Shown: positions 24,906 through 32,365 of the stretch, piece after piece | How positions within the stretch are numbered: the stretch's first letter is position 1 | Layout: each line of letters opens with the position of its first letter | Notes under the pieces: model-generated | Seen by the model: only the letters and a program-made list of their open reading frames with translations | Database searches by the model: none | Told to the model about the DNA's origin: nothing | Assembly (NCBI RefSeq): GCF_003334355.1 | Contig: NZ_QOWP01000014.1 | DNA from: Escherichia coli | GTDB lineage: Bacteria > Pseudomonadota > Gammaproteobacteria > Enterobacterales > Enterobacteriaceae | Strand: one strand, 5' to 3' | Length of the DNA stretch: 64,000 nucleotides | Translations under genes and position numbers: made by a program

Positions 24906-25843
24906 GCATTCGTCCTCTCTGCAATACGCAGAACTGAACTACGGGCACGAGGGTTCTCAGCCACCTCTTCTTCGCCCGGCATTAACTTGCCTAGTGCTCG
25001 CAGCTGACGGCCACCCAGTTTTTTGAGCTGCTCTTCAGTCATCGGTAACCCTGCCGGAACTTGCGGACCGCGGCTGTTTTCACGCATAAAACGTTTCACA
25101 ATACGGTCTTCCAGCGAGTGGAAGCTGATGATCGAAAGCCGCCCACCCGGGGCCAGCACGTTGAGCGAGCTTTTTAGCGCCTGCTCTATCTCCTCCAGTT
25201 CACTGTTTACCCAAATGCGCACCGCCTGGAAGGTACGGGTCGCGGGATGTTTAAACTTATCTTTCACCGGCGTTGCAGCAGCCACGACTTCCGCCAGTTC
25301 TTTGGTGCGGGTCATCGGCTGTTCGCGGTTACGCTCGACAATGGCGCGGGCAATGCGTTTGGCAAAACGCTCTTCACCATAGGTTTTCAATACCCAGGCG
25401 ATATCGGCTTCTTCTGCGGTTTGTAGCCATTCAGCGGCTGACTGCCCACGGGTTGGGTCCATACGCATGTCCAGCGGACCATCGCGCATAAAGGAAAAGC
25501 CGCGCTCAGCATCATCAAGTTGCGGTGAAGAGACGCCAAGATCGAGGAGAATGCCGTCGATCTTGCCGATAAGATCGCGCTCGGCAACGTATTCGCCCAG
25601 CGCGGAAAAAGGTCCGTGGATGATGGAGAAGCGCGGATCATCAATAGTCTTCGCAACGGCGATAGCCTGCGGGTCGCGATCGATCGCCAGCAAACGCCCC
25701 TCTTCGCCAAGCTGCGAGAGGATCAGACGTGAGTGACCACCGCGACCAAAAGTCCCATCAATGTAGATGCCATCAGGACGGATATTGAGGCCATTAACGG
25801 CTTCATCCAACAGCACCGTAGTATGTTTATAGTTTTCCATCAT
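24902..25843 (-). CDS. rsmH: 16S rRNA m4C1402 methyltransferase RsmH (MraW)
   Basis: 313 aa from internal ATG ([12 protein letters not shown]...); the 356-aa track ORF is an upstream in-frame extension through mraZ 3' region; SAM-MTase motifs. Confidence 0.93.
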
Positions 25844-25844
25844 T

Positions 25845-26303
25845 TTATAGAGACAAGTCCTGCAGTCGCTCCGATAAGTCTCCGGTAGCCAACTGCTCTG
25901 CGTCGATATCTTCCTTGACCTGTTGATGCCAGGTTGTTTCATCCCACAGCTCAAACTTGTTGAACTGTCCAACCAGCATCACTTCTTTTGTCAGCCCGGC
26001 ATGTTGCCGCAGTACTGGCGCGATTAACAATCGACCTGCGCCATCCATCTGACATTCGCTGGCATGACCTAACAGTAGGCGCTGCACACGGCGCTCAACC
26101 GGGTTCATGCTCGACAGACGCGATAATTTTTGCTCGATAATTTCCCATTCAGGCAGGGGGTAAAGCAGCAGGCACGGGTGATAAATGTCAATGGTGCAAA
26201 CCATTTGACCGGCAGCGTTCTCAAGCAGCTGTTCCCGATAACGGGTAGGCACTGATAAGCGCCCTTTGCTGTCGAGATTGACTAACGTTGCTCCCCGGAA
26301 CAT
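25845..26303 (-). CDS. mraZ: Transcriptional regulator MraZ
   Basis: 152 aa from internal ATG ([19 protein letters not shown]...); first gene of dcw cluster. Confidence 0.94.
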
Positions 26304-26320
26304 GCCAGCCTCACCCCTTA

Positions 26321-26347
26321 TTCCCACTTTGCCCCACAATTTCCCAC
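26321..26347 (-). promoter_or_regulatory. Three direct repeats (GTGGGAA / GTGGGGC / GTGGGAA on the coding strand, 10-bp period) in mraZ 5' leader: MraZ operator repeats / Pmra region
   Basis: Top strand ttcccac-ttt-gccccac-aat-ttcccac at 26321-26347, 18 nt upstream of mraZ ATG; MraZ is known to bind direct TGGGN repeats in its own promoter region. Confidence 0.75.
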
Positions 26348-26858
26348 TGAAAGGAGTTTACGGAGCTGAGGAAAAGCTTGTCAAGCCAGTCACAAGGCAT
26401 ACCGAGGTAAAAAACCCGATGTTTACGGCTAATATCAGCGTTGTTTATTTTACGTCCAACGTGCGAAGCAAATTAACGTTATGAATAGCTGTAAGAAAAA
26501 ATCCCTCATCGTCATCACTGTTTTAAAATGACTCACTATTTTCCACAGCAAATATAAAGTGTCAGTTTGCGACGCGAGCGGCATTTTAGGACATATCTTC
26601 CCCGGTTAACAGTCCTTGTTACGTCTGTGTGGCGCTTGATGCCAGCGGGTTTGCGCAAAAGCAAAGAAAAGTGTTTGTTAAATCGGCAATTCATCGCCGC
26701 ATGTAACAAAATAATGCAAAAACGCGCTGTCGATATCACTTAATTATTGTGAATTTCAGCTGGTGAGTTAATTAACGGGCGGGTTTAAAAGCATTTATCA
26801 ATAATAGTCAGGAATAGTCTTATTTACTTTAAGCATATTGATGTCCAGTCCCGTACTC

Positions 26859-26895
26859 TACGCGCCAGAGGGAAATTCACCTGGCGCGTATTTTT
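26859..26895 (+). terminator. Terminator-like hairpin with T-tract oriented on the top strand, 10 nt from cra stop
   Basis: 10-bp stem tacgcgccag / ctggcgcgta with 12-nt loop followed by ttttt on the + strand; no U-tract in the cra (reverse) orientation. Confidence 0.4.
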
Positions 26896-26904
26896 GTTCG
26901 CGGC

Positions 26905-27909
26905 TTAGCTACGGCTGAGCACGCCGCGGCGATAGAGATTACGTTTAATGCGCGTTAAACCAGGTTTTGGCTTACGCGGTTCGTCCAGGCTTGCCAGGAC
27001 AATCTCCAGCACACGCTCTGCGACATCGCGGTGACGTTGAGCCACTGCCAGCACCGGACACTGTAAGAAGTCGAGCAGTTCGTTATCGCCAAAGGTGGCA
27101 ATTGCCAGGTCAGAAGGCAGTTTGCCGTCGCGACGCAGCGTGACATCCATCACTCCTTGCAACAACGCAAACGACGTTGTGAACAGCGCCTGCGGCATCG
27201 GATGCATTTCCAGCCATTTTTCGAATAACTGGGCAGCCGCCTCCCGCTCATAGCTGTTGGCATACAGGAAATGCACTTCGCGCGGATCATCTTTCCAGGC
27301 AGTACGGAAACCTTGTTCACGCAGGAAGCTGACAGAAAGCTCCGGTAGCGCACCAAGATAAAGCACCGTCTCGGCGGGAAACTTACGTAACTCTTCCGCC
27401 AGCATTTCGGCATCATCCTGATCGGCACCAACCACGCTGGTGAAGTGTTCACGATCGAGGGCGCGGTCCAGCGCGACAATCGGGAACGGGTCGTTAGCCC
27501 AGCGTTGATAAAAAGGATGCTCAGGAGGCAACGACGTCGAAACAATAATGGCATCAACCTGACGCTGTAAAAGGTGCTCAATGCACCGCATTTCGTTGTC
27601 TGGCTGATCTTCTGAGCAGGCAATCAGCAGTTGATAACCCCGTTGCCGCGCCTGGCGTTCAAGATAGTTAGCGATGCGGGTATAGCTGGTGTTCTCCAGA
27701 TCGGGGATCACAAGACCAATAGAACGTGTGCGTCCAGCACGAAGCCCAGCTGCCACGGCGTTCGGGTGGTAATTGTGCTCACGCACCACAGCCATGACTT
27801 TTTCAACGGTTTTGTCGCTCACACGGTATTGCTTCGCTTTGCCGTTAATAACATAGCTTGCAGTGGTCCGCGACACTCCCGCCAGCCGAGCGATTTCATC
27901 CAGTTTCAC
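26905..27909 (-). CDS. cra: Catabolite repressor/activator Cra (FruR), LacI family
   Basis: 334-aa ORF; N-terminal [24 protein letters not shown]; LacI/GalR periplasmic-binding-like core. Confidence 0.97.
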
Positions 27910-32315: not shown

Positions 32316-32338
32316 GCCAGCACGCAGTCAAACAAAAA

Positions 32339-32365
32339 ACCCGCGCCATTGCGCGGGTTTTTTTA
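32339..32365 (+). terminator. leu attenuator (intrinsic terminator)
   Basis: acccgcgc-catt-gcgcgggt stem-loop followed by 7 T, 24 nt after leuL stop and 43 nt before leuA. Confidence 0.9.

Follow-up and report, generated by a model that had tools for sequence, protein, structure and literature searches.

In Escherichia coli, RNA polymerase needs a U-rich tract for intrinsic release, and intrinsic termination leaves 7-9 nt of this U-tract at the end of the transcript. Bidirectional intrinsic terminators between convergent genes have reportedly been described by Ju et al. 2019 with SEnd-seq. For the dcw cluster, the promoter Pmra is said to have been described by Hara 1997 and the MraZ operator by Eraso et al. 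2014.

It was shown that Rho-dependent transcripts have precise steady-state ends just past stable stem-loops without U-rich tails (Dar and Sorek 2018, PMC6061677). Such stem-loop ends are shielded from PNPase and RNase II, C is enriched over G just downstream, and no association with A-tracts before the stem is noted for the Rho-type ends (Dar and Sorek 2018, PMC6061677). In Rhodobacter sphaeroides, the long dcw leader contains the sRNA UpsM (PMC5089854).

The hairpin in the cra-mraZ interval analysed here is the already catalogued 3' end of the cra mRNA. The spacer that carries it is a gene-free regulatory region of the dcw cluster, with two promoters, the MraZ operator and invariant blocks.

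Organization of the cra-mraZ spacer

The window (the whole 64,000-nt stretch of E. coli DNA analysed in this work) is the reverse complement of the MG1655 orientation, and positions were converted as MG1655 = 115937 - window position. The spacer is bounded by two co-directional genes on the minus strand, with cra upstream of mraZ:

26905-27909, minus strand: cra (fruR) coding sequence, from the ORF list; b0080 at 88028-89032 in MG1655
25845-26303, minus strand: mraZ coding sequence; b0081 at 89634-90092 in MG1655

The cra stop codon (TAA) is at 26905-26907, and the true spacer between it and the annotated ATG of mraZ extends over 26304-26904 (601 bp). The initial annotation had described the spacer as gene-free, which was borne out, and had let it start at 26340, which has to be moved to 26304 because a longer TTG-initiated ORF had been used. 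Neither MG1655 nor six further E. coli genomes annotated with PGAP has an annotated feature between cra and mraZ. As had been claimed for its rank in size, only the leuL-leuO spacer (659 bp) is longer within MG1655 51.9-100 kb. For the comparative analyses, 80 Enterobacteriaceae cra loci were fetched and alignments covering 71 species were made; the spacer is 562-662 bp long in 70 of the 71. It differs from that of MG1655 by one SNP.

The Rfam search at E<=10 over 25500-27500 gave no match in the spacer. A sub-threshold match to osmY RNA was found inside mraZ (25901-25968, minus strand; 19.9 bits against a gathering score of 46.9, E = 0.13), which is most likely a chance match.

Structure and conservation of the hairpin downstream of cra

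Two features lie directly behind the cra stop codon:

26859-26890, minus strand: stem-loop in the cra 3'-UTR, defined by its fold, by helix conservation in Escherichia and by its location in a single-copy region
26891-26895, no strand assigned: T5 on the plus strand (A5 when read along cra), taken from the sequence; in the cra sense it directly precedes the hairpin

The stem begins 14 nt past the cra TAA. Its arm TACGCGCCAG (26859-26868) pairs with CTGGCGCGTA (26881-26890) in 10 perfect base pairs, closing a 12-nt loop, and past the stem the plus strand reads A, then TTTTT (26891-26895), then GTT. The perfect 10-bp stem and the top-strand TTTTT noticed at the outset were thus both confirmed by the sequence. 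In the cra sense, AAAAA stands before the hairpin and AGAGUACGGG after it, and the U-tract is absent.

The hairpin RNA folds with -20.3 kcal/mol (z = -4.0), and none of 200 shuffled sequences folded equally well. A custom scan for perfect stems that had 9 bp or more, including 5 or more G/C pairs, a 3-12 nt loop and a tail containing T5 returned two sites in the 64-kb window, the cra hairpin and 32338-32359 on the plus strand, and zero sites in each of 20 dinucleotide-preserving shuffles. The second site (MG1655 ~83578-83599) is presumably the leu operon attenuator, judged from its position. Because of the z-score and the contrast between window and shuffles, the hairpin is regarded as non-random. 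It was not called by a standard terminator scan, since its 12-nt loop exceeds the limit of 3-8 nt set for loops there.

Of 5426 E. coli genomes, 5424 carry the 121-bp hairpin region as a single copy, which rules out a repeat element. The cra 3' region (26820-26940) is also unusually polymorphic, with 4046 of the 5424 genomes only 95-99% identical over the 121 bp; the sampled E. coli changes hit the loop, the outermost stem pair and the flanks, and spared the stem core.

A GC-rich hairpin was found right after the cra stop codon in nearly all anchorable Enterobacteriaceae species, with sequences that are unrelated between genera. Kosakonia, Phytobacter and Cedecea are among the genera with a canonical hairpin and U-tract at this position, whereas Salmonella, Klebsiella, Kluyvera, most Citrobacter and Escherichia have a hairpin without a U-tract. 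Within Escherichia the helix is kept, with two compensatory pairs and, in a small sample, 95.6% of cells paired against 20-56% in slid controls. At least four A's before the hairpin are invariant in 10 of 10 Escherichia sequences, which were sampled from E. coli, E. albertii, E. whittamii and two further Escherichia species. In Escherichia the A-tract is retained while the 9 nt that separate it from the stop codon diverge; in Citrobacter and Klebsiella, the homologous hairpins of CTGGCG type lack the A-tract.

A perfect 10-bp inverted repeat might also be a palindrome bound by a protein at the DNA level, with no role for RNA structure. This explanation is hardly credible here, as other genera form hairpins at the same place from unrelated sequences, the two arms are separated by 12 bp, and RNA 3' ends map to the base of the hairpin.

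Mapped 3' ends and the fate of cra transcripts

Published transcript maps place two cra-sense 3' ends in the spacer:

26855-26856 (MG1655 89081-89082), minus strand: 3' end of the cra mRNA, from TRS and SMRT-Cappable-seq
26457 (MG1655 89480), minus strand: weak cra-sense 3' end, the TRS 'IGR' terminus cra.mraZ.IGR

In TRS, a 'Primary' cra terminus is listed on the plus strand of MG1655, with a peak at 89076-89087 and the dominant positions 89081-89082 (Bar et al. 2023, PMC10687069). At least three sheets list it, with a drawing of the hairpin, an energy of -19.3 kcal/mol and a maximum U-tract of 1 (PMC10687069); over TRS and this analysis, the fold energy is about -19 to -22 kcal/mol. The dominant positions are 3-4 nt beyond the end of the stem at 89078. 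The same end was found by SMRT-Cappable-seq, whose reads come from intact primary transcripts with a 5'-triphosphate and in which true termination and 3' trimming are not distinguishable: primary transcripts of b0080 alone extend from a TSS at 87968 to a TTS at 89082 (Yan et al. 2018, PMC6131387). On neither strand did Adams et al. 2021 call a 3' end at cra, and their bicyclomycin table has no entry for cra.

The operon table of SMRT-Cappable-seq also holds a variant b0080|b0081|b0082|b0083 starting from TSS 87968 (PMC6131387), which is cra read-through into mraZ-rsmH-ftsL. The row for cra gives 94/20/6/24/119 in unlabelled columns (PMC6131387); with the column meanings inferred, these values would fit roughly equal numbers of read-through and terminated reads and a median extension of ~119 nt. 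Co-transcripts of ilvIH and cra from a TSS at 85598 appear in the same table (PMC6131387). Given the co-transcripts on both sides, cra-mraZ-rsmH-ftsL and ilvIH-cra, cra is not a cleanly isolated transcription unit.

The stem-loop is probably the 3'-end structure of the cra mRNA, which would arise by Rho-dependent release followed by trimming to the stem. RNA polymerase transcribing cra on the minus strand would pass the hairpin, which can be at best a weak intrinsic terminator because the U-tract is absent. Most cra transcripts would be released further on, in the untranslated AT-rich spacer and most likely by Rho, and would then be trimmed by 3'->5' exonucleases up to the stable stem, with ends 3-4 nt past it. 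A minority would escape into mraZ-rsmH-ftsL. From the C-over-G bias downstream, the overhang of 3-4 nt and the heterogeneous longer molecules, we infer that Rho takes part and that exonucleases trim the ends, and for these three reasons this route is favoured. The downstream region was delimited as follows:

26760-26850, minus strand: candidate Rho loading region, AT-rich with C>G; C/G 1.4-2.25 in 78-nt windows from MG1655 89091-89151

The C/G ratio reaches 2.0-2.25 in the 78-nt windows beginning 19-43 nt past the stem, alongside an absolute C content downstream of the hairpin of only 19-23%. A RhoTermPredict-style spaced-C rule is not satisfied directly after the hairpin.

A minor possibility is that the hairpin works in the cra direction as a weak intrinsic terminator with neither a U-tract nor Rho, through pausing and release at the hairpin that is perhaps aided by NusA/NusG. 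The precise 3' end located at the stem and the high read-through would fit. Furthermore, Kosakonia, Phytobacter and Cedecea have canonical terminators at the cra-stop position, and termination at this site is therefore an ancestral or common function. However, the established U-tract requirement of E. coli RNA polymerase argues against such a terminator, the end only 3-4 nt from the stem suggests trimming, and the C>G region downstream fits Rho.

The terminus at 89480 is weak and hairpin-less, with a signal of 0.42 and a fold of -3.8 kcal/mol (TRS, PMC10687069). It is located ~120 nt downstream of the predicted start of the distal promoter described below, and could be a processing, pause or Rho site. 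A further 3' end was mapped inside mraZ, ~150 nt into the coding sequence (~26150-26158, minus strand; MG1655 89779-89787), by both Adams et al. Term-seq and TRS.

Promoters and conserved blocks in the spacer

The part of the spacer next to mraZ holds two elements:

26355-26384, minus strand: Pmra, with -35 TTGACA, 18-bp spacer and -10 TAAACT; 10/12 in the promoter scan
26323-26347, minus strand: three GTGGG direct repeats with 10-bp spacing, from sequence and conservation

We take the GTGGG repeats to be the MraZ operator. Pmra has the top PWM score in the spacer and is 98-100% conserved. It is the second minimal promoter at 89547-89587 in the MPRA of Urtecho et al., and a SMRT-Cappable-seq TSS at 89588 matches it (PMC6131387). 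In 14 of the 71 species an insertion of ~10 nt is present between the MraZ repeats and the mraZ start (window 26305-26325); the loci with this insertion include L056, L060, L064, L072 and L080, and in these species the Pmra -35 stands 90-91 bp from the ATG in place of 81 bp.

A second promoter, with a conserved block behind it, was located farther upstream:

26583-26612, minus strand: distal promoter facing mraZ, with -35 CTGTTA (26612-26607), 18 bp and -10 TAAAAT (26588-26583)
26552-26582, minus strand: nearly invariant 31-bp block GCCGCTCGCGTCGCAAACTGACACTTTATAT, 91-99% identity in 71 Enterobacteriaceae species

Both hexamers of the distal promoter are conserved, and its 18-bp spacer varies in sequence and never in length (no indels). 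The hexamers fall inside a 40-bp minimal promoter at 89317-89357 on the plus strand of MG1655 (window 26620-26580), which was found by the tiling MPRA of Urtecho et al. A figure legend of that report speaks of 'two distinct promoters' in the promoter region of mraZ. So far as found, the distal promoter has been reported as this MPRA match and this legend, and no functional study of it was found. No native TSS and no long transcripts from ~89361 occur in the examined SMRT-Cappable-seq tables (PMC6131387).

The 31-bp block would supply the distal promoter with its GC-rich discriminator and with the initial ~25 nucleotides of the transcript. Conservation in this promoter module exceeds that of the adjacent coding sequence. 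In 66 of the 71 species the distal -10 is 203-205 bp away from the Pmra -35, and the distance from the cra stop to the distal -10 is variable (266-449 bp). For the 190-nt putative distal leader, RNAalifold over 34 species gave a consensus of -1.4 kcal/mol with zero compensatory pairs, and after this null result a structured leader or a classical sRNA was dropped. The sole SNP between this spacer and that of MG1655, at window position 26519 (A here and G in MG1655, cra sense), falls within the variable portion of the putative leader.

The small ORFs at 26536-26739 and 26266-26484 exist as listed and, in agreement with the earlier view of them as non-coding, neither has a reading frame that is conserved. 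A 44-aa ORF at 26450-26584, which overlaps the invariant block, was rejected as well; it is not codon-wise conserved and has indels in its middle. All three ORFs show frame-breaking indels and conservation that is block-wise.

Three more blocks stand out in the 71-species alignment:

26805-26822, no strand assigned: partly palindromic motif, AATAAGACTATTCCTGAC in E. coli and TTAAGATTATTCCTTAA or TTAGGATAATTCCTTAA in most other genera; from the 71-species alignment
26702-26715, no strand assigned: conserved block ATTATTTTGTTACA, 96% column identity for 26714-26705 over 71 species
26465-26504, no strand assigned: conserved block GGATTTTTTCTTACAGCTATTCATAACGTTAATTTGCTTC, 78-92% identity, with the palindrome TAACGTTA at 26474-26481

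The first motif is moderately conserved and located ~40-55 bp 3' of the cra hairpin. Around the second, the region 26665-26720 contains the block TGYATTATTTTGTTACA followed ~12 bp later by ATTGCYGAATTAACA, and the E. coli sequence has a 7-bp inverted repeat there, made up of TTTGTTA and TAACAAA 23 bp apart. The third reads TTTTTTCTTACA..TATTCATRACGTTAATTTGC and encloses TAACGTTA as a perfect palindrome. A terminator at the conserved T-run 26494-26499 of this block was considered and rejected, as no GC stem precedes it.

When the three blocks were compared by eye with the consensus sequences of CRP, LexA, Cra, DnaA and SlmA, no good match was seen. In the CRP genomic SELEX, mraZ is listed as a target. 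The conserved blocks of the spacer look like regulatory sites at the DNA level, a proposal made from sequence because no conserved RNA structure, Rfam family or ORF explains them. A literature search for cra-mraZ and fruR-yabB, and for the invariant-block and hairpin sequences, returned nothing.

Transcription on the top strand

The initial annotation had offered two explanations for the T-tract, and the transcript maps bear on both. No minus-strand 3' end of MG1655 (plus strand of the window) was present near 89042 in the examined parts of the TRS, Adams and SMRT-Cappable-seq tables, in which low-abundance RNAs would escape. A consensus scan found no plus-strand promoter upstream of the hairpin, and the best plus-strand PWM score, 7.0 against 13.0 for Pmra, lies in non-conserved sequence. 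The first explanation was a bidirectional cra terminator lacking a U-tract. A cra hairpin without a U-tract it is, with cra-sense ends at 89081-89082, whereas the word 'bidirectional' has to be given up as no top-strand end is reported. It had also been reasoned that cra 3' ends at the hairpin, together with a lack of top-strand ends, would make it simply the cra terminator; this is the pattern in the parts of the tables examined.

The second explanation, an unannotated top-strand transcript that ends at the hairpin, was not supported. The orientation of the T-tract speaks for a small RNA gene on the plus strand. Against it stand the lack of any Rfam match, annotated ncRNA, mapped plus-strand end or strong upstream promoter in the searches described above, and the poor conservation of the 150 bp upstream (plus strand) beyond Escherichia, and such a gene is very improbable.

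A related reading needs no gene: the hairpin could also, or even mainly, be an intrinsic terminator for the plus strand, which would stop antisense or pervasive transcription from the spacer or mraZ before it enters cra. This role, which could coexist with the 3'-end role for cra, is unlikely. On the plus strand the anatomy is canonical, with a 10-bp GC-rich stem, one A and then UUUUUGUU; a stem with T5 is as rare as the custom scan indicated (two sites per 64 kb, zero in 20 shuffles); and at least four T's on the plus strand are invariant in Escherichia despite the diverging 9-nt flank. Moreover, an upstream A-tract is atypical of Rho-type protective hairpins (PMC6061677), and because the A-tract is conserved, the role was kept in consideration. 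However, no 3' end near 89042 and no convincing plus-strand promoter turned up in the tables and scans above, a loop of 12 nt is longer than expected of an efficient terminator, and the A-tract is missing from the homologous hairpins of Citrobacter and Klebsiella.

These roles may be combined in a more speculative way, which we consider quite doubtful: the hairpin would be a strand-asymmetric insulator that bounds the dcw control module, acting as an antisense terminator and as an exonuclease stop for cra, with read-through and the distal promoter feeding Pmra and mraZ. If this were true, it would explain the retention of the T-tract in Escherichia, and the transcription fed by cra read-through and the distal promoter into Pmra and mraZ would be regulated. 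A TAAAGT -10-like element on the plus strand inside the invariant block would be a possible antisense source under such an arrangement.

Significance and comparison with known systems

The hairpin is ordinary and largely catalogued already. Read as the probable 3'-end structure of the cra mRNA, it adds one more to the E. coli 3'-end stem-loops without a U-tract, and it teaches that the orientation of a tract alone does not tell which strand uses a hairpin. Termination behind cra is leaky enough to allow co-transcription of cra with the first dcw genes. Of more interest within the interval is the distal promoter module; the tuning of dcw to growth is incompletely understood, and this module offers a concrete handle for testing it.

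Compared with a canonical intrinsic terminator, the cra hairpin has the GC-rich stem-loop near the stop codon, whereas its 12-nt loop differs and, in the cra direction, there is no U-tract and the 3' end is 3-4 nt from the stem and not 7-9. It resembles bidirectional terminators in being one hairpin with a flanking A-tract that is a U-tract on the other strand, but the tract is present on one side only and cra and mraZ are co-directional, not convergent. With the class of Dar and Sorek (PMC6061677) it shares a stable stem-loop, the absence of a U-rich tail and a precise end just past the stem, and its mild C-over-G bias downstream may be a further likeness; unlike that class, it has an upstream A5 tract, which is conserved in Escherichia.

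For the dcw side of the spacer, the E. coli promoter located far upstream could give a long untranslated dcw leader, as in the UpsM leader of R. sphaeroides (PMC5089854). The sequences of the two leaders are unrelated, and the enterobacterial one showed neither a conserved RNA structure nor a terminator. The mraZ-proximal 80 bp of the spacer are the known Pmra/MraZ-operator system (cited via PMC5089854), to which the spacer adds a second, distal promoter 204 bp upstream.
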